Assembly: GCF_900232105.1 (NCBI RefSeq)
Contig: NZ_LT934425.1
Span: 3,990,001 to 4,022,000, forward strand
From: Candidatus Kuenenia stuttgartensis
Lineage (GTDB): Bacteria > Planctomycetota > Brocadiia > Brocadiales > Brocadiaceae
Reading direction: 5' to 3'
Length of the DNA: 32,000 bases
Shown piece after piece: positions 15,003 through 26,425 of this stretch. The position numbers were made by a program, and so were the translations under genes. A model generated the notes under the pieces. The model was not told where the DNA came from. It ran no database searches and saw nothing but the letters and a program-made list of their open reading frames with translations. Position 1 is the first letter of the stretch; each line of letters starts with the position of its first letter.

Positions 15003-16386
15003 CATAAGCGCTAACTTGTTTTATTGACAAATTTTATTCATCATGGTATTTTTATGTTAATTATCCCGCTAATCACTCTATAGGAGGATAAAGCCATGAT
15101 GAGAGAAGATTGGGATCTTCTAAGAACTTTCTTCCCAAACGATTGGAAAAGTTTAGCCGTTGATACAAATGCTTTAAAAGGCTTGCGCAAGGATAAATCT
15201 GAAGAAAAGCTTCTTCGAACATTATTAATTCATTTAGGATGTGGCTATTCATTGCGTGAAACAGTAGTTCGAGCCAAGCGTGCTAACTTAGCAGATTTAT
15301 CCGATGTTGCCTTATTAAAGCGATTAAAAAAGAGCAAAGAATGGCTATATAAATTATGTTTATCTTTATTCCGTGAGCGTGGCCTCCAAATTAATAAACG
15401 GAATAATTTTCATCTTCGCTTATTTGATGCAACAACAGTAAAGGAACCTGGGAAAACAGGAAGTCTTTGGCGCATTCATTATAGTATTGAGGTTCCTTCA
15501 TTATCTTGCGATTTCTTTAAACTTACGGGAACTGAAGGAGAAGGCACAGGAGAATCTTTTCGGCAGTTTCCGATGAAAAAAGATGATTATATTATAGCTG
15601 ACAGAGGTTACTGTACTGGCCAAGGAATTCATCATGCAACAAGGAAAGGCGCTTATCTTAGCGTTAGAGTTAATTCGCAATCTCTACGGATATTCGGCGA
15701 AGAAAAGAAACCCTTTCCTTTATTGAAAGAAATCCAATATTTAAAAAGACCCCTTGCTATAAAATCATGGAACGTTTTTATTCCAAACGTTGATAATACT
15801 GAATATGTCAAAGGTCGTCTTTGTATAATACGCAAAACAGAAGAAGCCATTAAAATAGCTCATAAAAAACTTAAAAGACATGCAAGCAAAAAGGGCATTG
15901 AACTAAAACCGGAGACCCTTATTTATGCCAAGTACGTAATAGTATTCACAACGTTTCCTGAAAATCAATTTACCGCTTTTGATATCTTAGAATGGTATCG
16001 AGTTCGATGGCAAATTGAACTGGTCTTTAAAAGATTTAAACAAATAGCACAATTTGGACACTTACCTAAATACGATGATGATAGCTCAAAAGCTTGGCTT
16101 TATGGCAAACTATTCGTTGCTCTTTTGACAGAAAAACTAATAGATTTTGCTACGTCTTTTTCCCCCTGGGGATACTTCATTGTCAAGCAAGAAGACTAAA
16201 AGCAAATGGCGTGAATTTGCTTTTATGCTTAATCAAGTAAAACGGGCTATAGAACCAGCGTTATCATTACAGGAAGTTCTTAAGTGCTGGAATGACATTG
16301 CTTGTTCTTTAGCAGAAAATACAAGAATCCGAAAAACACAGATATCAAAATACTTCGAGCATACCTAAAACAAGTTAGCGCTTATG
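15003..16386 (+). mobile_element. IS4-family insertion sequence (1384 bp) with 21-bp perfect IRs and 11-bp target duplication
   Basis: IR-L is CATAAGCGCTAACTTGTTTTA (15003-15023) and IR-R is its exact complement (16366-16386). The direct repeat GGGCGGAGGGT lies at 14992-15002 and 16387-16397. Confidence 0.9.
15096..16368 (+). pseudogene. IS4-family DDE transposase with split reading frame (15096-16199 and 16147-16368)
   Basis: The IS4 signature Y-x2-R-x3-E-x6-K is present (YRVRWQIELVFKRFK). The frame changes in or near TTTTTCCCCCTGGGG (about 16160-16175). The second frame ends at a TAA inside IR-R, as expected for the genuine C-terminus. Confidence 0.8.
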
Positions 16387-16611: not shown

Positions 16612-18069
16612 TTACCCCTGGTTGACAAGCTCACCCAGTCTAATATGCTTGCGCATTACAGCATCGATATCCTCCATGTATCTCCCGTCCGCAGGGTAAC
16701 ACTGAGTACCATGAATATGCATGTCCAGCCCGTCAAGCTCTTCTGCTTCAGATACCCTGATACCGATGGTATGTTTTAGTCCAAAGAATATGACGAAGCC
16801 CAGTCCACCTGCCCATACTATGGCGGTGGCGAAGGCGATGAGCTGGGCAAGAAACTGCTGGCCGGAACCAACGATCAGCCCACTTACTCCTCCATATGAA
16901 CCGTCGGCAAAAATCCCTACGGCAAGAAGCCCCCACAACCCATTAGCGCCGTGCACAGATACCGCACCAAGGGGATCATCCACTCTAAACTTACGTTCAA
17001 CAAGCCACACCGAGCCGCACATCAACAAACCGCCAACTAACCCTATAATAACGGCAGCCCATGGCGCAATGAACGCACATGGCGCCGATACAGCTACAAA
17101 ACCTCCCAGTGCGCCATTACAAGCCTCCGCTATATCCGCTTTTCTAGATTTCCAGTAGGTATATAATACGACAATGACAGCGCCTGAAATACCGGCAAGG
17201 AGGGTATTGGCAGCAATAATTGAAGACCGTAATTCCGATATTGCGAGGGTGCTGCCAGCATCATAAGCAAGCCACCCAAAGGCTAAAACAACGGTGCCAA
17301 TAAGTACATAGGCAATGTTGTGTCCATGGATATGGTTAGAAGAGCCGTCCTTATTAAATTTTCCGATTCTCGGACCTAGCGCCCATGCACCCATAAAGGC
17401 ACAGATTCCACCAATTGCATGGACTACTCCAGATCCGGCAAAGTCCTTGACTCCCACCCCCAATTTTAACTTAGCAAGCCATCCTTCGCCCCATATCCAG
17501 TGGCCGTAGAATGAATAAGCAAATGTATACACGAGAAGCCCTGCGATTAAAAAGGCGGAAAACTTAATCCTTTCTGCAACAGCGCCGGCAATGATGCTGC
17601 CAATAAAAGTGGCAACAACCGCCATGAAGGTAAAGAGCAGAATGGTCTTTACATCATACGTATCTCCTAAAAGCATAAAGCCGCCATAACCTATAAAGGG
17701 ATTACCTTTATCAAGGCCTGACGCCAAGTGAGAACCGCCGAACATAAATGCAAAACCAAATAGCCAGAAAATAAAGACTCCCGCCGTTGTAGCCATAAAG
17801 CAATGAGCCATGTAGCTAAGCATATTTTTGGAGCGAACAAGCCCGCCAAGCAGCATAAACCCGGCCTGCATAAAGAGAATAAGAAACGCCGCCACCAATA
17901 TCCAAACAAAGTTTCCTGAAGTGCTCAAGCCTTCGAAGCTTTGCGTGAACGTGAATGCGCCACTGGGATCGCCTGCCTGCACACAGTTTGCCCATAGGAA
18001 AAACATAGTAACGCTGCAAAAAAGGACCAAGCCAAAGCGACTCATCTTGATCCTGCACATATTCTGCAT
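16612..18069 (-). CDS. amt: ammonium transporter (Amt family)
   Basis: 485 aa with a signal peptide and multiple TM segments. Twin-His contexts are DFAGSGVVHAIGG and DDPLGAVSVHGANG. The C-terminal GLDMHIHG resembles AmtB GLDVNSHG. AAGGAG lies 7 nt upstream of the ATG. Confidence 0.92.
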   Translation of the reverse strand: MQNMCRIKMSRFGLVLFCSVTMFFLWANCVQAGDPSGAFTFTQSFEGLSTSGNFVWILVAAFLILFMQAGFMLLGGLVRSKNMLSYMAHCFMATTAGVFIFWLFGFAFMFGGSHLASGLDKGNPFIGYGGFMLLGDTYDVKTILLFTFMAVVATFIGSIIAGAVAERIKFSAFLIAGLLVYTFAYSFYGHWIWGEGWLAKLKLGVGVKDFAGSGVVHAIGGICAFMGAWALGPRIGKFNKDGSSNHIHGHNIAYVLIGTVVLAFGWLAYDAGSTLAISELRSSIIAANTLLAGISGAVIVVLYTYWKSRKADIAEACNGALGGFVAVSAPCAFIAPWAAVIIGLVGGLLMCGSVWLVERKFRVDDPLGAVSVHGANGLWGLLAVGIFADGSYGGVSGLIVGSGQQFLAQLIAFATAIVWAGGLGFVIFFGLKHTIGIRVSEAEELDGLDMHIHGTQCYPADGRYMEDIDAVMRKHIRLGELVNQG

Positions 18070-18112
18070 TTTAAATCTCCTTTATATACATAATGCTATA
18101 AATAATTTAGCA

Positions 18113-18213
18113 TATACTCAATCAGACTGAAATCACTGGTTTCTGACATGCGCATTCATTGCCTTCTATACTCAATCAGATTGAAGCCGCTGGCTTCCGT
18201 CTGATTGAGTATA
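18113..18213 (-). promoter_or_regulatory. three copies of a 14-nt element (two direct, one inverted) between the PII gene and amt; strong hairpin with an alternative pairing partner
   Basis: TATACTCAATCAGA at 18113-18126 and 18167-18180, with the exact complement TCTGATTGAGTATA at 18200-18213. The 19-nt spacer contains its own stem, GAAGCC-GCT-GGCTTC. Confidence 0.45.
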
Positions 18214-18324
18214 TATTGTGTAGCATATGCCCGTTTACAAACTTTTCTATCACTAAACGCGTATATTTTATACGTTACTTTTTATTTAATCGTAGAGCGT
18301 TGTTTAAAATCTGACGATGTTTTT

Positions 18325-18771
18325 TTACTTTGGAAAAACTTCGTTCAGGGAAGCACGCTCTTTTTTGAGACTCTCAACAGCCTTCATATCCCCCGATTCT
18401 TTTGGAGATAATTTTACAACCCTTCCGTTAGCGCTAATGGCATTATGACCAGTTTCGCCCGTGCGTATGCGACAGGCTGATTCCACATGAGTCACAAATA
18501 CTTTTCCATCGCCAATAACCCCTGTTTTTGCCTCTTCCATAATTATTTTGATTGCCGTCTCCAATTCTGCTTCCGGGACTACAACCTCGAGTTTTATCTT
18601 TTTGTGTAAATCTACCATATATTCTCTTCCACGCCATACCCGTGTCTTACTGATTTCACTTCCTTGCCCTCTGATTTCAGTAACATGCATTCCCATTATT
18701 CCCGTTTCCTGCAACATAGAACTAACCGCCATAAAACGTTCAGGGCGAATAATTGCCTCTATTTTTTTCAT
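18325..18771 (-). CDS. PII-family nitrogen regulatory protein with Trp at the T-loop Tyr51 position and a ~36-aa C-terminal extension
   Basis: MKKIEAIIRPERF...MHVTEIRGQG...RVWRGREYMVDL...KLEVVV...KTGVIGDGKVFV...RIRTGE is collinear with GlnB/GlnK. It is 148 aa against the usual ~112. Confidence 0.85.
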   Translation of the reverse strand: MKKIEAIIRPERFMAVSSMLQETGIMGMHVTEIRGQGSEISKTRVWRGREYMVDLHKKIKLEVVVPEAELETAIKIIMEEAKTGVIGDGKVFVTHVESACRIRTGETGHNAISANGRVVKLSPKESGDMKAVESLKKERASLNEVFPK

Positions 18772-18810
18772 TTTATTTCCTCCTAATAATATTCCTGTTG
18801 TAGCTAAAGA

Positions 18811-19242
18811 TTAAGGGCAGACGTCCACAATCTTTAAAACCTCACTTTGTCTCGTAAGTGGCGTCCCTTCAGAAAAAACGTGTTCCTGCTTTGGCGTCAA
18901 TGATACCCATCTGCCATCTTCCGTTATTATATCTTTTTTAATTATGCCTGACTTTAACCGCAACGCATATTCGTATTCACAGTTATTTCCATCTTCTTCA
19001 TGTAAGAATCTGCTTATGTTCCGCAATGCATCGTCTACTGCGTTTTCTTCTAAGACAACTTCTATCTTTACATTCTTTATTATATCTACTACGTACTCGT
19101 CATCGCGCCAAAAGACAGACCTGGTTGCTATTTGGTCTTGATCTTTTATATACGTCTTTATTACCGGATGTCCAATTTCTCCGAAATAATTTTCTAATAT
19201 CTGTACGGCACCTGGCTTTATAAATGCGGATATTTTTTTCAT
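18811..19242 (-). CDS. highly diverged PII-like paralogue lacking the nucleotide-binding B-loop
   Basis: It aligns by eye with the neighbouring PII (MKKI.A.I.P; FWRDDEYVVDI vs VWRGREYMVDL; VKIEVVL vs IKLEVVV). HEEDGNNCEYEY replaces TGVIGDGKVFV. It shares the C-terminal motif DGRWVSLTPKQE / NGRVVKLSPKE. Confidence 0.6.
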   Translation of the reverse strand: MKKISAFIKPGAVQILENYFGEIGHPVIKTYIKDQDQIATRSVFWRDDEYVVDIIKNVKIEVVLEENAVDDALRNISRFLHEEDGNNCEYEYALRLKSGIIKKDIITEDGRWVSLTPKQEHVFSEGTPLTRQSEVLKIVDVCP

Positions 19243-19308: not shown

Positions 19309-19325
19309 GCGCAACTGCAGTACCA
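19309..19325 (-). promoter_or_regulatory. sigma54-type -24/-12 promoter upstream of the PII-like/PII/amt genes
   Basis: The minus strand reads TGGTAC-TGCAG-TTGCGC. GG and GC are at the exact consensus spacing (TGGCAC-N5-TTGC) with one mismatch. The -12 element is ~70 nt upstream of ATG 19242, and a sigma54 activator gene is adjacent. Confidence 0.55.
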
Positions 19326-19582: not shown

Positions 19583-20977
19583 TTAATCCTTGAAGGTATC
19601 CTTGTTTATGTTATATTTCTTCATTTTCCGGTAAAGGGTTTTTGCGTCGATACCGGAAATCCTGGCAGAAGAGTCAATTCGTCCTTTGCATTGTTTTAAA
19701 AGTTTCATTATATACAGGACTTCGCACTCTGATAAGAAGGTTTCCATGTCGATATTGGTAACATGGTCATTAGGGGTATTAACGAATGCTTCTTTCTGTT
19801 GTTTTTGGTGGAGTATTGGCATATCAACCTCGTTAATTATATTGTCTTTTGCCATAATTACTGCCCTCTCTGTCAAGTTCTCGAGTTCCCTGACATTGCC
19901 AGGCCAATGGTATGACATCATGATATTAAGGGCATTTTGAGAGATAGATTTAATATTTTTTTTAAACGCTTTATTATATTTTTCGATAAAGTGCAATACA
20001 AGCAAAGGGATATCTTCTAATCTTTCTTTCAAGGGCGGCAATTGAATGGGAATAACATTTAAACGATAGTATAAATCTTTTCTGAAACCCCCTTCTTCCG
20101 ATAAGTTATTGAGGTCTTTATTGGTGGCGGCAATAACCCTTACGTCAACCTTTATTGTCTTATTTCCGCCAATCCTTTCGAAAGATTTCTCCTGCAATAA
20201 CCTGAGAAGTTTTGTTTGCATAGAAAGAGGCAAGTTCCCCATTTCATCAAAAAAAACCGTACCTTTGTTTGCATGTTCAAACTTGCCTGTCCTCTGTTTT
20301 ACAGCGCCGGTGAAAGCGCCCTCTTCATGTCCAAAAAGTTCTGTTTCCAGCAGCGACTCAGGCAATGCACTGCAATTTATGACGACAAAAGGAGCATCTT
20401 TCCTGCTGCTGTTGTGATGAACAGCGTGCGCTATAAGCTCTTTACCTGTGCCCGTTTCCCCGGTTATCAGTATCGTAGCGTCAGTGTCTGCCACCTGCAT
20501 GATCAGGTCATATATTTGCCGCATTCTGTGCGACCCCCCTATTATATTGCCAAAGCTAAACCTCTCTTCCAGTTCCTTTCGTAATGCCCTGTTTTCTATT
20601 ATCAGATTTTGTTTTTCAAAGGCGCGTTTGATGACCAGTCTCAACTCCTCTGCAGAAACTGGTTTCGTGAGATAATCATAAGCGCCTATCTTTATCGCTT
20701 CCACAGCAGTTCTCACGCTGCCATATGCAGTCATCATAATCAAAAATACTTCCGGATATTCAAGCTTTAATTGTTTTAATAATTCAAACCCATCCATTTT
20801 AGGCATTTTAAGGTCTGCAATAACCAGATCATGCGGCGATTTTCTATAAATACTCATCGCCTCCAAACCATTAGACGCCGTACTGATCTCGTATCCTTCG
20901 CTGTCCAGAACACTTTTAATACTACCGAGGACGTATTCGTCATCCTCCACCACCAGTATCTTTTTTTCCCCAACCAT
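19583..20977 (-). CDS. sigma54-dependent response regulator (NtrC family: REC + AAA+ + Fis-type HTH)
   Basis: REC domain (VVEDDE, DLVIADLKMPKMDG, MMTAY), Walker A GETGTGKE, GAFTGA loop (EEGAFTGA), WPGNVRELEN, and a C-terminal HTH (ISGIDAKTLYRKMKKYNI). Confidence 0.93.
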   Translation of the reverse strand: MVGEKKILVVEDDEYVLGSIKSVLDSEGYEISTASNGLEAMSIYRKSPHDLVIADLKMPKMDGFELLKQLKLEYPEVFLIMMTAYGSVRTAVEAIKIGAYDYLTKPVSAEELRLVIKRAFEKQNLIIENRALRKELEERFSFGNIIGGSHRMRQIYDLIMQVADTDATILITGETGTGKELIAHAVHHNSSRKDAPFVVINCSALPESLLETELFGHEEGAFTGAVKQRTGKFEHANKGTVFFDEMGNLPLSMQTKLLRLLQEKSFERIGGNKTIKVDVRVIAATNKDLNNLSEEGGFRKDLYYRLNVIPIQLPPLKERLEDIPLLVLHFIEKYNKAFKKNIKSISQNALNIMMSYHWPGNVRELENLTERAVIMAKDNIINEVDMPILHQKQQKEAFVNTPNDHVTNIDMETFLSECEVLYIMKLLKQCKGRIDSSARISGIDAKTLYRKMKKYNINKDTFKD

Positions 20978-21132: not shown

Positions 21133-21147
21133 TGGCACACCTATTGC
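21133..21147 (+). promoter_or_regulatory. consensus sigma54 -24/-12 promoter upstream of the 122-aa unknown gene
   Basis: TGGCAC-ACCTA-TTGC is a perfect match to TGGCAC-N5-TTGC, 57 nt upstream of ATG 21204 and divergent from the sigma54 activator gene. Confidence 0.65.
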
Positions 21148-21203: not shown

Positions 21204-21572
21204 ATGAAAAACATTAAAAACGCCGGTTTTGAACAAAGCATTTATTCTGAACCAGAGGTAATAATAGATAAAGTTGTTGACAATAAGAGATACCGGTTTT
21301 GCAGGTTTCCCGCCAACGAGAATCTCTATAAGGAAATAAGCAGCATTGCCAGGCGCTGGAGAGACGGAGAAATATCTCAAACAGATGCCTCCGGGTTGCT
21401 GGAGATTGCTTCACTTCCCTACGAAAGATGGATTTTTGATATGATTGCCGACCTTGCCGAGGAGACGAAACACCTTGAATATATTGCGGATGACAATGAC
21501 TATAAGGGTGTAAAGGCGATTGCCTTCTTACAACATGGCAATGAGAGATCATATAATATCCAATATAAATAA
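21204..21572 (+). CDS. hypothetical 122-aa protein, probable sigma54-dependent gene
   Basis: ATG 21204 with AAGGAG 7 nt upstream; the track ORF from 21102 overlaps the promoter and is not credible. No TM segment, signal peptide or recognisable family. Confidence 0.6.
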   Translation: MKNIKNAGFEQSIYSEPEVIIDKVVDNKRYRFCRFPANENLYKEISSIARRWRDGEISQTDASGLLEIASLPYERWIFDMIADLAEETKHLEYIADDNDYKGVKAIAFLQHGNERSYNIQYK

Positions 21573-21601: not shown

Positions 21602-24600
21602 CTATGCATCAGTTTTTAAAATCGGCAGTAGTATCTGAAAAGTGGTTCCCTCATTAAGGGTGCTTTTGATGCCGATCTTTCCGGCGTGTTCCGTTATAAT
21701 ATTGTAACATATCCATAAACCCAACCCTGTGCCGGTCCCTTTTTTCGTGCTAAAAAAGGGCTCAAAAATATTTGGCAAATCTTTTTCCCTTATTCCGCAT
21801 CCGTTATCGGCAAACTCAATCTGTAACTGATTGTTTTTTGCTTGTGCAGTTATATTAATAGTTCCGCCGTTTGGCATTGCGTCAAGAGAATTGAGTATAA
21901 GGTTTGTAAACACCTGTTCTAATTGGTTGGAATGGCATCTTATGCAGGGAATATTTTTGTCAATCGTTTGTTTTACCGTTATTTTTGACTGAGAAAGTTT
22001 CTTCTGTAATAAATTCACGACATTTTGTATGTGATAATTAATATTATGATCGCCTTTTTCTTCCATTATATGCAGGTTAGAGTCTAACAAACTCCTTACA
22101 ATTCCCGCTATCCTGTAAATGCCGTCCATGACGAGTTCCACATATTTCCTTTTCTCATCCTTCTCCCCCATTCTCTCCAGCAACAATTGCAGGTAATTAA
22201 TAATGCCTTCCAGCGGGTTATTGATCTCATGCGCAACGCTTGAGACGACCCTGCCTGTTGAAGCCAGCTTTTCCGCCTCTAACAGTTGCGATTCCAGACT
22301 TTTTTCCGCCGTAATATCCCTGTAAACGGACCTGATGGCGGTAATTCTGCCATTATCATCACAAATATGATTATCGTTCAGGCTGACGTCTATAATGCAT
22401 CCGTCTTTTTTTATAAGTTGTAGTTCTGGTCCCTTTACAAGCTGTCCGCTCAAACGTTTGGGTAATAATTTTTTCATTACTTCCCTGTTTTTTTTCGTTT
22501 GAAAATCGAAGATATGCCTTCCTATAAGTTCCTCTTTTTTATATCCTAAAATCTCTGCGCCTGTTTTATTGCAATTGATTATAATCCCGTTTTCATCGTT
22601 TGTTATATAGATATCCGGAGCATTATCATAAAGGTCTTTGTATCTTTTCTCAGACTCCCTTGTTTTTTTAAATAATCTGGCATTTTCCATGGCGATGGCC
22701 AACTGTATGGCAATCTGTTTCAGTAGTGTAAAATGTTTTTCAGAAAAGCTGTTTTTTTTTGAACTTCCAAAGTTAATCGTTCCGATAATATTGCCTTTGT
22801 ATTCAAGCGGGAAACTGAGCCGCGACATTATACCTTCTTTGAGCAACAGACGATCTGGCTCAAAAGCGCTTTTTGAAGTATCTCTCACAATAAACGGCCT
22901 GCCGGTAAAAGTTACCTGCTCTAACAAGCTCCCTTCTTTTCTGAGCCAGTCATTTTCGCTAATTGCCGTGTAATCATACGATTTGTCCATGGCGGCAACC
23001 TCAACATTTTGTTTTTTTTCATCAATCAAGGCAATGCTGACCCTGTCAAACTCCATGACGCGCTTCAGCTCATTACTTATTGACCTAAATAGCATATCCG
23101 ACATAAGATCAGAAGAAACAATCTTATTAATATTGTATATAATTTCCTTCTGATGTTCCATTTCCCACATTTTGGTAATATCCTGAACCAGCTCAAGCAC
23201 ATGGGTAATATTTCCCTGAACGTCTTTGATTGGTGACCCAATAAAGTGGTAATATTTCTTCTCGTTGTCCCTGCCAATTACCAGCTTTTTTATTTCTTCT
23301 CTCTTACCGCTCATAAATACGCGTTTTGCAGTGCAGTCCTCCGTGGAAGCATTGCCGCAGCCAAAAATTTTATTACACGCATCATTTTTAAAACCATATA
23401 CCATTCCAAACTGTTCCACGAAGGGTTTGTTGCCCCACGTAATCTTCATTTCTCTATCGATGAGGCATAAGTATGCGCCTATTCCGGTCACTATCATATC
23501 GAGTTTCTTTTCTTCTCTCTCCAGTTCCGCACGTGCTTTTTCAAGGTCGTTCAGCATGTACAATGTTGCTTCTCTAAAGTCTGACAATTCATTTATAAGT
23601 TTTTTTGTATGCCTCATATCCCTGGCAACGCCGACAACATTTATCACCTCTCCATCGCTGTTACGCATTATACGCCCGCAAAAATTCACAGGGATATCTT
23701 CTCCTTTATGCGTATGATACATAATATCGTAATCCTTTAATACATCTTCCTTCCAAAGATCACTCCAGCTCCGGTTCGCAATGGGGTTGTCTTTGTCTCT
23801 CAGGATCATATCTATATTATTGCCAATTAACTCCTTTTCTTCATACCCTAACAGATCGAGCATTGATTTATTTACGGTTTTTATCCTGCCATGTTGGTCT
23901 ACCACAACCAACGTATCGATCATGCTTTCAATTAAATTTTCCACATAAGCCTTTGACACAGTAGTCTTCTGCATATCTTCTGTCATTTTGTTTATAGAGG
24001 TAGCCAGCATTCCAATTTCGCCCCCTGAGGAAAGATGTATCCTCTTGTCAAGATCACCGTCGGCAATGGCGGCCATTACACGTGATATTTTTGAAATGGG
24101 GCTTGTAATCAACCTTTTTGTCAATAAGTATGTAATAAAAACAATTGCGGCAACAGAGACCAGTGCAATACAGATAAGTATTATTATGTTTGATTTCACG
24201 CTTGCATGAATAAGTCTTAATGGCGCTATGACGCTTATCGCTCCCCACAAATTGCCCTCCTTATATGCCTCATTCTCATGACCGGGAATGGTTGTTTTTC
24301 CTGCATGCCCTCCGTGGCATCCGAGACAGGACTTCTTCATATAGAGTGGGGCAATATAACGAAATATTTTTTCATTATTTATGCCAAACGACTCACCACA
24401 ATACGCATCATGTGGTTTCTGTTCTTCCATGTTTTTCAAGACGGCTTCTTCCAAATCATCCGGGTGGTTATCTGTATTTATGTGTTTCAGTGCTATCAGC
24501 CGAACCGTGTATGGTCTGTTTTCGTTGATGGTGTTGGAAAATTCCGCGCAGATTTCTGAAGGGTGCAAATGTATAAAAACCGTATTGCTGCCAGCGCGGC

Positions 24601-24796
24601 CAGTATTGAAACTATTCTGAGCCTCTGCTAAACGACTGTGGATCATTTCTATTTGCTTAACAAGAATGTTTGCATGTTTTTTTATTTCGTCTTCCAGCAA
24701 ATAGTCTTGCCTTTTAATGATCAGTGTAAAGCTTACCCCCAGTACCAGTGGTACAAAAAGGCTGATTGATAAGATATATTTAGCGCCCAGTTTCAT
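21602..24796 (-). CDS. multi-sensor histidine kinase: periplasmic CXXCH (Tll0287/DUF3365-like) domain, TM, HAMP, PAS-like repeats, GAF, HisKA, HATPase
   Basis: 1064 aa with an N-terminal TM. The periplasmic segment carries RLIALKHIN..PDD.E...YRYIAPLYMKKSCLGCHG...GNLWGAISV (CLGCH at 24314-24328). A second TM, HAMP (GDLDKRI...EIG.L..SINKM), GAF (RVSIALIDEKK...IGTINFGS), H-box SSVAHEINNPLEGI and the ATPase motifs DNGCGI and GTGLGL follow. Confidence 0.9.
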   Translation of the reverse strand: MKLGAKYILSISLFVPLVLGVSFTLIIKRQDYLLEDEIKKHANILVKQIEMIHSRLAEAQNSFNTGRAGSNTVFIHLHPSEICAEFSNTINENRPYTVRLIALKHINTDNHPDDLEEAVLKNMEEQKPHDAYCGESFGINNEKIFRYIAPLYMKKSCLGCHGGHAGKTTIPGHENEAYKEGNLWGAISVIAPLRLIHASVKSNIIILICIALVSVAAIVFITYLLTKRLITSPISKISRVMAAIADGDLDKRIHLSSGGEIGMLATSINKMTEDMQKTTVSKAYVENLIESMIDTLVVVDQHGRIKTVNKSMLDLLGYEEKELIGNNIDMILRDKDNPIANRSWSDLWKEDVLKDYDIMYHTHKGEDIPVNFCGRIMRNSDGEVINVVGVARDMRHTKKLINELSDFREATLYMLNDLEKARAELEREEKKLDMIVTGIGAYLCLIDREMKITWGNKPFVEQFGMVYGFKNDACNKIFGCGNASTEDCTAKRVFMSGKREEIKKLVIGRDNEKKYYHFIGSPIKDVQGNITHVLELVQDITKMWEMEHQKEIIYNINKIVSSDLMSDMLFRSISNELKRVMEFDRVSIALIDEKKQNVEVAAMDKSYDYTAISENDWLRKEGSLLEQVTFTGRPFIVRDTSKSAFEPDRLLLKEGIMSRLSFPLEYKGNIIGTINFGSSKKNSFSEKHFTLLKQIAIQLAIAMENARLFKKTRESEKRYKDLYDNAPDIYITNDENGIIINCNKTGAEILGYKKEELIGRHIFDFQTKKNREVMKKLLPKRLSGQLVKGPELQLIKKDGCIIDVSLNDNHICDDNGRITAIRSVYRDITAEKSLESQLLEAEKLASTGRVVSSVAHEINNPLEGIINYLQLLLERMGEKDEKRKYVELVMDGIYRIAGIVRSLLDSNLHIMEEKGDHNINYHIQNVVNLLQKKLSQSKITVKQTIDKNIPCIRCHSNQLEQVFTNLILNSLDAMPNGGTINITAQAKNNQLQIEFADNGCGIREKDLPNIFEPFFSTKKGTGTGLGLWICYNIITEHAGKIGIKSTLNEGTTFQILLPILKTDA

Positions 24797-24805
24797 AGAT
24801 TATAT

Positions 24806-26425
24806 TTATTTTGGTTTTTTTAAAGCGTAAAGGTCTTCTTCCATTTTTTTCATCTTTAATTCCCTGCCGACAGCTACTTTTGCAAAGTTCTCCAATTGTT
24901 CGGCTTTTTTCTTGAAATCATCCCGCGATTTTTCCAATTCCGAGGTTCTTTTCTTCACATCTTCTTCAAGATTTCTCTTTATGTCCTCCAGTTCCCTTGT
25001 TCTGTCTTTTATTTTGTCCTGTAATGCCGCATTCAAGTCCTGAACTTTTGTGATTTTAACAAAGTCAAGCCATGATGTGACGTCTGCATATTCACTGATA
25101 TTTAATCCCTTAACCTCTTCTTCGGTGCTGATTCTAATGCCTACCAGTTTCTTCATACACCAGAAAAATAAAAGTCCCAATGAAAAAGCCCAGGCAAATG
25201 CCACAATAATTCCCAGACATTGCACGCCAACCTGTAAAAGGCGGCTGAAGTTTGTCATTGAAAATGCAGACACGGGAGTAAACAAGCTAACGGCCAGGGT
25301 GCCCCAGACGCCGCAAAATCCGTGGACGGGAACCGCCCCCACCGGGTCGTCCACTCTTAATATCTTTTCGATAAAATCCTTAGCCAATATTGCGATGATG
25401 CCTGCGCATAATCCAACTATACATGCATATACGGGGCTCACCCTGCTGCAACCTGCGCCAATGGCAACGATTCCCCCCATGATTCCTAAAAGTATTTCTG
25501 CGGCGTCCAATGTTTTGTTTTTCAGTTTTCTGAAAACTGCAGCAGCAACACCCGCTACCGACCCAGACAAGGTTGTATTGATAATTACCAACCCGATGCT
25601 GGTATCAGCCTGCAAAAGAGCCCCTCCGTTAAAACCAAACCAGCCAAACCACAAAAAAAATGTACCTATTGTGGCAAGTGGTAGATTGTGTCCGTACATC
25701 CTGTTCACGGTGCCATCAGGATTAAACTTTCCGGTCCTCGGCCCCAGCACAATGGCGCCCGACAAAGCAATCCATCCGCTTACAGAATGGACTACCGTAG
25801 AACCAGCAAAATCTATAAATCCGAGCCTTTCAAGCCATCCATACTGCTGGGTATGCAATAAATGTCCCCATGCCCAATGGCCAAAGACGGGATAAATCAG
25901 GCAAACAACAACAATGGTCGTACAAATATGAGTTAACAGTTTTGCTCTTTCGGCATAAGCGCCAGATGTAATAGTGGCTGCGGTACCTGCAAATACCAGT
26001 TGGATAAAAACAAAGGCATATCCCAGGGAGGTTAGATGAGTATCAATACCATATAACAGAAAATTACTTATGCCGATATAGCCGTTATAGCTCACGCCAA
26101 ACATAATCCCAAACCCTACGATAAAATATGTTATGGAACTTATAAGAAAATTCAATATATTTTTTATGGAAACGCTTATGGCATTTTTTGCCTGTACTGA
26201 GCCAGCTTCATATGCCGTAAAACCCACCTGCATGAAAAAAACCATGCTGGCAGCGACAATAATCCAGATAAAATCAAGTTTTTTCTGGATTAATTGCAGA
26301 GATGTTTCCTCATTTTCAGCATGAACATTATAATGCGGGTAAAAAACTAATGCGGTCGCTATAATGCAGGCAAAGATAATTATTATTTGCCTTTTGTGCC
26401 TGTTATCGCTTTGTATGTTACTCAT
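24806..26425 (-). CDS. Amt-family protein with a ~92-aa C-terminal coiled-coil extension (candidate ammonium sensor/transceptor)
   Basis: 539 aa. The Amt core has twin-His contexts DFAGSTVVHSVSG and DDPVGAVPVHGFCG. The conserved cytoplasmic GLDxxxHG is changed to GLNISEYA. The tail QDLNAALQDKIKDRTRELEDIKRNLEEDVKKRTSELEKSRDDFKKKAEQLENFAKVAVGRELKMKKMEEDLYALKK is heptad-like and highly charged. The stop lies 9 nt before the kinase ATG. Confidence 0.88.
   Translation of the reverse strand: MSNIQSDNRHKRQIIIIFACIIATALVFYPHYNVHAENEETSLQLIQKKLDFIWIIVAASMVFFMQVGFTAYEAGSVQAKNAISVSIKNILNFLISSITYFIVGFGIMFGVSYNGYIGISNFLLYGIDTHLTSLGYAFVFIQLVFAGTAATITSGAYAERAKLLTHICTTIVVVCLIYPVFGHWAWGHLLHTQQYGWLERLGFIDFAGSTVVHSVSGWIALSGAIVLGPRTGKFNPDGTVNRMYGHNLPLATIGTFFLWFGWFGFNGGALLQADTSIGLVIINTTLSGSVAGVAAAVFRKLKNKTLDAAEILLGIMGGIVAIGAGCSRVSPVYACIVGLCAGIIAILAKDFIEKILRVDDPVGAVPVHGFCGVWGTLAVSLFTPVSAFSMTNFSRLLQVGVQCLGIIVAFAWAFSLGLLFFWCMKKLVGIRISTEEEVKGLNISEYADVTSWLDFVKITKVQDLNAALQDKIKDRTRELEDIKRNLEEDVKKRTSELEKSRDDFKKKAEQLENFAKVAVGRELKMKKMEEDLYALKKPK

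Follow-up and report, generated by a model that had tools for sequence, protein, structure and literature searches.

Few signal transducers have been studied as closely as the PII proteins, and GlnK acting on AmtB is the textbook example of a transporter plug. In this system, known from E. coli and as GlnK-Amt from archaea, the PII gene is linked to amt. Here we analysed a stretch of 32,000 nucleotides (nt) of DNA (in the following the window; contig NZ_LT934425.1, positions 3,990,001 to 4,022,000) in which two PII-like genes, nrp4 and nrp3, lie in tandem upstream of the ammonium transporter gene amt_4. Three proteins of the window with lengths of 143, 148 and 485 amino acids (aa) are identical to GJQ48406.1, GJQ48405.1 and A0A2C9CJU7 of Kuenenia, respectively, and the window is from Candidatus Kuenenia stuttgartiensis, an anaerobic ammonium-oxidizing (anammox) bacterium. 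We refer to the nrp3 product as protein A and to the nrp4 product as protein B. The three genes are located as follows:

18811 to 19242, minus strand: nrp4 (nrp_4, KSMBR1_3718), open reading frame (ORF) of 143 aa encoding protein B, a predicted pseudo-PII; 100% identical to Kuenenia GJQ48406.1
18325 to 18771, minus strand: nrp3 (nrp_3, KSMBR1_3717), ORF of 148 aa encoding protein A, a GlnK-type PII with a tail of 36 aa; identical to GJQ48405.1
16612 to 18069, minus strand: amt_4 (KSMBR1_3716), ammonium transporter of 485 aa with 355 bits to Pfam Ammonium_transp

The ORFs of A and B are separated by 39 nt. An earlier note on this DNA, made from the letters alone, had described ORFs of 148 and 143 aa as a tandem, diverged PII pair ahead of amt, and this description holds. 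The order B, A, amt_4 was fixed in Kuenenia, Scalindua, Jettenia, Brocadia and Loosdrechtia, at every locus with enough DNA. The gene names are those of Table 1 in Smeulders et al. 2020 (PMC7438415), where both nrp genes were treated as ordinary GlnK, and where nrp3, nrp4 and amt_4 were reported to be co-transcribed and up-regulated under nitrite limitation. PII proteins of the GlnK subfamily are encoded next to amt and co-transcribed with it; the gene order found here and the co-transcription reported in PMC7438415 agree with this. In the literature searched, PMC7438415 was the only source naming these loci, and no earlier account of the pseudo-PII, the tail or the channel extension was found. 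The genes are thus already named, and the pseudo-PII, the clade-exclusive common tail and the matched channel extension are undescribed features.

The module resembles GlnK-AmtB in the linkage of PII and amt genes and in protein A, which has the PII fold, the B-loop, K58, R101/R103 and a T-loop of normal length with R47 at its tip and Y51. Its predicted action, the plugging of cytoplasmic pore exits, would also be the same; for effector-controlled binding to the Amt trimer this prediction draws on R47, Y51 and the T-loop length. Unlike GlnK-AmtB, however, the anammox module has two PII genes in the order PII-PII-amt, one of which (that of B) encodes a protein without effector sites. Both PII proteins carry a conserved tail found nowhere else, and Amt_4 has an extra C-terminal segment. 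Expression is sigma-54-dependent and goes up under nitrite limitation (ammonium excess), not under nitrogen starvation. A precedent for two diverged PII paralogues encoded side by side is NifI1/NifI2 of methanogen and anaerobe nif operons, which form an obligate 2:1 heterotrimer (2xNifI1-NifI2; bioRxiv 10.64898/2025.12.07.692841) and are required jointly; the pair is hence also a precedent for a mixed trimer whose subunits differ in role. The target of NifI is nitrogenase and not an Amt protein; nif genes were not found in the window or in related loci, which have amt, kinase and sigma-54 regulator genes nearby. The NifI2 T-loop is long (residues 36-70), whereas that of B is one residue short of the standard and that of A is standard. 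NifI1,2 bind MgATP and 2-oxoglutarate in the GlnK geometry (bioRxiv 10.64898/2025.12.07.692841), whereas B is predicted to be unable to supply the half of the cleft that would be its own. The GRxVxL tail is also absent from NifI proteins.

Protein A scored 87.6 bits against the Pfam P-II profile (PF00543, cut-off 25), with A residues 1-106 covering profile positions 1-102, but only 109 against the NCBIfam equivalog with its cut-off of 202, and is therefore a family member rather than an E. coli-type equivalog. In the AlphaFold2 (AF2) monomer model the core of A reached a predicted local distance difference test (pLDDT) score of 76-92 and showed the ferredoxin-like beta-alpha-beta-beta-alpha-beta fold. 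The 50 best Foldseek matches of A in the PDB were all PII proteins (GlnK or GlnB structures), with E-values down to 5e-11. Two functional loops of A were located:

18496 to 18525, minus strand: B-loop of A, TGVIGDGKVF, intact; T83, G84, G87, D88 and G89 invariant in 22 A-family sequences
18613 to 18669, minus strand: T-loop of A, residues 35-53, GQGSEISKTRVWRGREYMV; contains W46, R47 and Y51, with S38 and E39 replacing R38 and Q39

All A-family sequences have K58 and R103, 20 of 21 have R101, and G35 and G37 are conserved. Residues specific to the family are S, T or N at position 38, E at position 39 and H56. By its ligand residues A is a complete PII that keeps every ATP/ADP and 2-oxoglutarate ligand except R38 (S/T/N) and Q39 (E). 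We consider it quite probable that A regulates Amt_4 as a functional PII of the GlnK type. S38, W46 and H56 were also considered as features unique to A and rejected as such; they are present in ordinary anammox PII or haloarchaeal GlnK, among the latter GlnK2 of Haloferax mediterranei (PDB 4OZJ), which shares all three T-loop variants with A and, unlike A, has neither a tail nor a pseudo-PII partner. The family-specific residues at positions 38, 39 and 56 are likewise not unique to A; a group of haloarchaeal-type GlnK without tails shares them, and E39 occurs in sequences related to GlnK2.

Protein B is far more divergent. Its score against Pfam P-II was 17.7 bits, below the cut-off of 25, with a match confined to profile positions 48-84, and NCBIfam GlnB gave 30.5 bits over residues 1-78 (cut-off 202). 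Some B orthologues have a weak precomputed match to PF00543. In a fold search the N-terminal ~85 residues of B matched PII structures only (E 2.6e-5, ~85 columns). In the AF2 monomer model residues 1-82 had block-mean pLDDT values of ~60-86 and were arranged as beta-alpha-beta, a hairpin and beta-alpha, and residues 83-143 were below 50. The regions of B which correspond to the effector cleft and the T-loop are:

18967 to 19005, minus strand: degenerate B-loop region of B, LHEEDGNNCEYEY, as seen in the alignments and the ligand table
19087 to 19146, minus strand: T-loop of B, residues 33-52, KDQDQIATRSVFWRDDEYVV; the tip is conserved, and the base glycines, R38 and Q39 are lost
18949 to 18966, minus strand: C-loop block of B, ALRLKS; in the MAFFT alignments R95 is the counterpart of R101 and K97 that of R103; L96 and K97 do not vary, and R95 occurs in at least 90% of sequences

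In place of TGxxGDGKIF protein B has HEEDGNN and a gap of five residues. It lacks G27, G35, G37, R38, Q39, K58 and T83-K90, and in all 37 B sequences G35, G37, R38, Q39, K58 and G87-K90 are replaced or deleted. The claim of the earlier note that B is a pseudo-PII without nucleotide and 2-oxoglutarate binding was thereby supported at the level of sequence: the B-loop, the T-loop base and K58, and with them the predicted ligands of both effectors, are lost. The T-loop of B is one residue shorter than standard, and its tip is the most conserved stretch of the protein, with R41, F44, W45, R46, E49, Y50 and V52 invariant in 20 B sequences (7 of 12 residues at positions 41-52, compared to 27 of 143 overall). 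Conservation then continues in a YEYALRLKS block, in GRW within the tail and in the C-terminal (E)VL(E)IxDV. Orthologues of B were intact at 138-144 aa in every anammox genus sampled, with a mean column identity of 74%. For the B core, the ratio of nonsynonymous to synonymous substitution rates (dN/dS) was 0.10-0.26 in all but one of eight pairs; the exception had 0.62. Judged from these alignments and rates, B is a PII-derived, degenerate protein under purifying selection. The B genes of Scalindua (L001:10001, L007:6001 and L008:6001) start with GTG instead of ATG.

Both proteins exceed the PII standard of 112 aa by 31-36 aa. The additional residues form C-terminal tails:

18328 to 18435, minus strand: tail of A, residues 113-148; motif NGRVVKLSPK at 18400-18429, distal part variable
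18814 to 18945, minus strand: tail of B, residues 100-143; motif DGRWVSLTPK at 18889-18918 and (E)VL(E)IxDV at 18814-18843

In the A tail the proximal motif reads (N/K)GR(V/I/L)Vx(L/M/I), with G116, R117 and V119 invariant. The dN/dS of its 11 codons was ~0-0.42, similar to the core, and that of the distal tail 0.3-2.5. The B tail has an invariant G110-R111-W112 and, in at least 90% of sequences, L136 and D140; the dN/dS of its motif was ~0-0.7. Common to both tails is GR(V/W)Vx(L/M), conserved across five anammox genera and placed at an equal offset, 13 residues past R103 in A and 13 past K97 in B. When A tails were scored with a profile of B tails, the median was 9.7 bits; of 11,000 shuffled tails, a fraction of 9e-5 scored this high. 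By this measure the match between the tails is beyond chance and the tails are homologous. This also answers two questions attached to the tail in the earlier note, which had proposed a functional extension instead of a mis-called stop and had named chance similarity as the objection: the tail is conserved, its motif evolves as slowly as the core, and the motif recurs in homologues across the five genera.

The AF2 monomer models gave pLDDT values below 50 for the tails of both proteins (in A from residue 122). A scan of six tails against Pfam with E-values up to 10 returned nothing relevant, and a comparison with all PDB sequences gave no match past the PII core. An AbrB/SpoVT swapped hairpin, suggested by the GRVV..PKE string, was dropped as an identity of the tail after these comparisons with Pfam and the PDB. 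Two described PII extensions offer parallels. The Q-loop of plant and green-algal PII is likewise a C-terminal extension beside the effector cleft and the T-loop base that adds a function. It binds glutamine and acts on NAGK, whereas the anammox motif is also found in a subunit without an effector site. Homology of the A tail to the Q-loop was not found in an alignment with Chlamydomonas 4USH, which was weak and extended up to A residue 123 (E 0.02 overall). The cyanobacterial PII-like protein SbtB, with its C-terminal R-loop, is a transporter plug of the PII superfamily with a functional C-terminal extension as well. Its R-loop is a CGPxGC redox hairpin, a motif absent from the anammox pair, and SbtB differs further in binding adenine nucleotides and cAMP and in its partner, the transporter SbtA.

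With respect to the T-loop, the earlier note had stated that Tyr51 was replaced by Trp in both proteins and that the modifiable tyrosine was absent. The first statement was an error of numbering. In E. coli GlnB, LYRGAEY corresponds to L45-Y46-R47-G48-A49-E50-Y51; VWRGREY of A runs from V45-W46 to Y51, and FWRDDEY of B from F44-W45 to Y50 in its own numbering. The Trp therefore aligns with Tyr46 of GlnB, and Tyr51 is kept. Aligned together with GlnB and GlnK of E. coli, 22 of 22 sequences had Y51 and R47, and residue counts gave Y51 in 21/21 A proteins and 37/37 B proteins. The second statement falls with the first: the tyrosine is retained in both proteins, and the sequence gives no sign against uridylylation or adenylylation. 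W46 itself was present in 80 of 254 other PII proteins sampled (31%); Haloferax GlnK2 (PDB 4OZJ) has it as well, and so do ordinary PII proteins of 112 aa from Kuenenia and Brocadiales. On these counts Trp46 is a common, lineage-typical variant and no novelty. Three of four ordinary 112-aa PII of the same lineage (P0096, P0054, P0081 and P0082, all with Trp46) have Phe at position 51; a missing modifiable tyrosine is therefore an occasional feature of these paralogues rather than of A or B. Correcting the claim averts a false annotation as non-modifiable PII.

We screened for relatives of both proteins. A profile of A, searched against 1.84 billion cluster representatives, gave 13,874 PII matches, among which the match included the tail in one cluster. 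The remaining long PII proteins (140-190 aa) were considered as tail relatives and rejected; their extensions are unrelated and junk-like, probably products of read-through or frameshifts. A profile of B, searched against 5.8 billion proteins, gave 37 clusters of at least 154 bits, followed by a gap to ordinary PII with at most 54 bits. As judged by these scores the B family is a discrete clade. With one genome per GTDB species, B was present in Scalindua, Loosdrechtia, Brocadia, Jettenia and unnamed Brocadiaceae/Planctomycetota metagenome-assembled genomes (MAGs) only, plus one short contig. On this 3.6-kb contig, labelled 'Bacteroidetes', the N-terminal ~65 residues of a B orthologue (L014:724-1140) are encoded beside the C-terminus of a regulator and followed by unrelated sequence; it is probably a misbinned or chimeric anammox contig. 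As far as these searches reach, the tailed PII pair is confined to anammox bacteria among the organisms found.

The channel protein also carries a segment of its own:

16615 to 16701, minus strand: C-terminal extension of Amt_4, 29 aa, CYPADGRYMEDIDAVMRKHIRLGELVNQG, beyond the end of E. coli AmtB

Amt_4 keeps the pore residues W148, D160, H168, S219 and H318, including the twin histidines, and looks like a working channel from this residue set. Its extension, CYPxxG(R/K)(Y/H)xEDIDx(V/I)xR(K/R)HIxLGx(L/F)V, recurs in each of the eight anammox orthologues examined, and E. coli AmtB lacks it. Together with the tails of A and B this means that all three proteins of the operon carry module-specific C-terminal additions.

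Our preferred reading, to which we would assign a probability of roughly 0.45, is that A and B are a co-expressed, anammox-specific pair that regulates Amt_4 as a mixed trimeric plug, with the tails as a docking element. A would be the sensing subunit. B would be a non-sensing subunit. Of the effector cleft it no longer has the 'cis' half (B-loop, T-loop base and K58) but might keep the 'trans' half (the R/K of the C-loop), and its T-loop tip, W-R-x-x-E-Y, is almost invariant. In PII proteins two neighbouring subunits contribute to an effector cleft, one with its B-loop and T-loop base, the other with its C-loop (PMC8395244). Loss of the first half with retention of the second half and of a plug-like tip is the pattern expected of a subunit beside a competent one, which points to a mixed trimer. 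A mixed A/B trimer, comparable to 2xNifI1-NifI2, would be the most likely arrangement. In the manner of GlnK on AmtB, the T-loops of this trimer would place Arg47 in the cytoplasmic pore exits of trimeric Amt_4, and the response to effectors would be limited to those clefts that use the B-loop of A.

The tail motif GR(V/W)Vx(L/M) would depart from the PII core at a site next to the T-loop base and the effector cleft; since the PII C-terminus lies beside the effector site, the tails are expected to emerge on the T-loop and target side. A C-terminal tag on MjGlnK1 is described in the literature to disturb 2-oxoglutarate binding. Because the motif is kept in both the sensing and the non-sensing subunit, docking is the simplest reading. 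The tail could thus be a module-specific docking or strand-addition element, directed to the partner subunit or possibly to the Amt_4-specific C-terminal helix. A further step, which we regard as rather doubtful, would be a heteromeric A/B PII clamped by its tails on the Amt_4 C-terminal helix, gating the three pores in a graded or partial instead of an all-or-none manner because some subunits could not respond to effectors.

Several observations weigh against the mixed trimer on Amt_4. The pairing of R95/K97 with R101/R103 comes from MAFFT, and hmmalign left this region unaligned. The structure models of A and B are monomers and hold no information on A-B, A-Amt_4 or B-Amt_4 contacts. The B core is no closer to A than to other PII: a B-core profile scored A at a median of 37.9 bits compared to 43.3 for other PII, descent of B from A is unsupported by core sequence, and the tail and the adjacency of the genes are the sole links between them. 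In Kuenenia and Scalindua the T-loop of B is acidic (RDDEY), a difference from A that might reflect a different target. As alternative partners, the same island encodes a second Amt (amtb_1), a kinase and a response regulator. The last three points would all fit a situation in which A and B form separate homotrimers with different partners, A being the GlnK of Amt_4 and B an effector-blind constitutive adaptor or decoy. B might then have amtb_1, the kinase or the response regulator as its partner, or it might be a competitor of A at Amt_4. Homotrimers are indeed the usual form among characterised PII proteins (bioRxiv 10.64898/2025.12.07.692841, introduction). However, B is fixed immediately 5' of A and amt_4 under the same promoter and not beside amtb_1 or the kinase, the R/K kept in its C-loop would have no obvious use in a trimer devoid of B-loops, and the common tail motif suggests a common partner. 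We therefore regard separate homotrimers as unlikely.

The tail might instead be a small-molecule sensing loop like the plant and algal Q-loop, giving A a new input, for example an anammox-relevant metabolite. The emergence of the extension beside the effector cleft, the precedent of the Q-loop and the unusual T-loop-base residues S38, E39 and H56 of A, invariant in the family, would be in line with this. Yet the tail is not similar to the Q-loop or any PDB chain and has no Pfam match, the same motif is kept in B, where there is no effector cleft to modulate, and S38, W46 and H56 also occur in the tail-less haloarchaeal GlnK, which makes a sensing tail improbable. B could also be regarded as a decaying duplicate without a function of its own, in view of its lost effector sites, its sub-threshold Pfam score and the low confidence of the C-terminal half of its AF2 model. 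This is hardly credible given the intact ORFs in all sampled anammox genera, the column identity, the low core dN/dS in seven of eight pairs, and an nrp4 gene that is transcribed and regulated (PMC7438415). For the model derived from the earlier note, an escape of A and B from covalent modification through an exchange of Tyr51 to Trp, nothing was left after checking other than the literal strings VWRGREY and FWRDDEY; with Tyr51 invariant in both families and the Trp at position 46, where 31% of other sampled PII and the solved GlnK2 structure 4OZJ also have it, the alignment already refutes it, and we give it practically no weight.

On the minus strand the genes follow each other as amtb_1, histidine kinase, a small ORF on the opposite strand, NtrC-type activator, B, A and amt_4. 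The elements which may control the operon, and the second channel gene, are:

19311 to 19325, minus strand: promoter of the sigma-54 type, TGGTACTGCAGTTGC; the start codon of B follows 68 nt downstream
19583 to 20977, minus strand: response regulator of the NtrC-type sigma-54 activators (Response_reg, Sigma54_activat and HTH_8), syntenic in all loci
21602 to 24796, minus strand: sensor histidine kinase with Tll0287-like, HAMP, PAS and GAF domains; CLGCH haem-c motif at 24314-24328
24806 to 26425, minus strand: amtb_1 (KSMBR1_3722), Amt paralogue directly 5' of the kinase gene, with a C-terminal extension of ~85 aa

A pattern search for sigma-54 promoters gave two matches where 0.14 were expected. 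The GG-N10-TTGC core of the promoter upstream of B shows no variation between Kuenenia, Scalindua, Jettenia and a Brocadia-like MAG, and a conserved promoter of this type fits the adjacent sigma-54 activator and kinase. The NtrC-type regulator is likely the activator of the B-A-amt_4 promoter. The Tll0287-like domain with its CLGCH motif suggests a haem-based sensor of redox state or of a nitrogen oxide, which might steer the sigma-54 regulator and with it the B-A-amt_4 operon. The second match, TGGCACACCTATTGC at 21133-21147 on the plus strand, lies upstream of a 122-aa ORF (21204-21572, plus strand) between the kinase and regulator genes; this ORF belongs to no Pfam family, is present in all syntenic loci and is ~75-80% identical in Scalindua and Jettenia.

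The extension of amtb_1 (24809-25066) is highly charged, heptad-like and conserved in three genera. A fusion of amtb_1 with the kinase was considered and rejected; the ORFs are separate, with TAA and 9 nt before the kinase start codon. amtb_1 looks like a sensor-type Amt split from its kinase, unlike the fused Ks-Amt5. A simple scan found no terminator on the minus strand between A and amt_4 or past the regulator gene. The spacer of 255 nt between A and amt_4 contains a palindromic repeat element (18097-18228) with three copies of a 19-mer and inverted arms of 22-32 nt. It was found in Kuenenia only, the spacers elsewhere being 6-120 nt long, and may be a small mobile or repetitive extragenic palindromic (REP)-like insertion. 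A DDE_Tnp_1 transposase gene of an insertion sequence (IS) element (15096-16199, plus strand) lies ~400 nt past the 3' end of amt_4.

The module pairs a sensing PII with a predicted effector-blind, PII-derived partner, places a unique tail on both, and combines them with a channel that has an extra tail of its own. If the mixed trimer is true, the anammox pair would extend the heterotrimer idea of NifI1/NifI2 to the control of a transporter. The module supplies concrete constructs (A, B, their tail-less forms and the Amt_4 C-terminus) for studying the gating of ammonium uptake in anammox bacteria. These bacteria import ammonium as fuel, and closing the channel at nitrogen sufficiency would be counterproductive for them. 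Should graded gating be true, catabolic ammonium import would be uncoupled from the assimilatory 2-oxoglutarate signal, and the pair would represent a regulatory answer to a problem posed in PMC7438415, the control of ammonium uptake for dissimilation.

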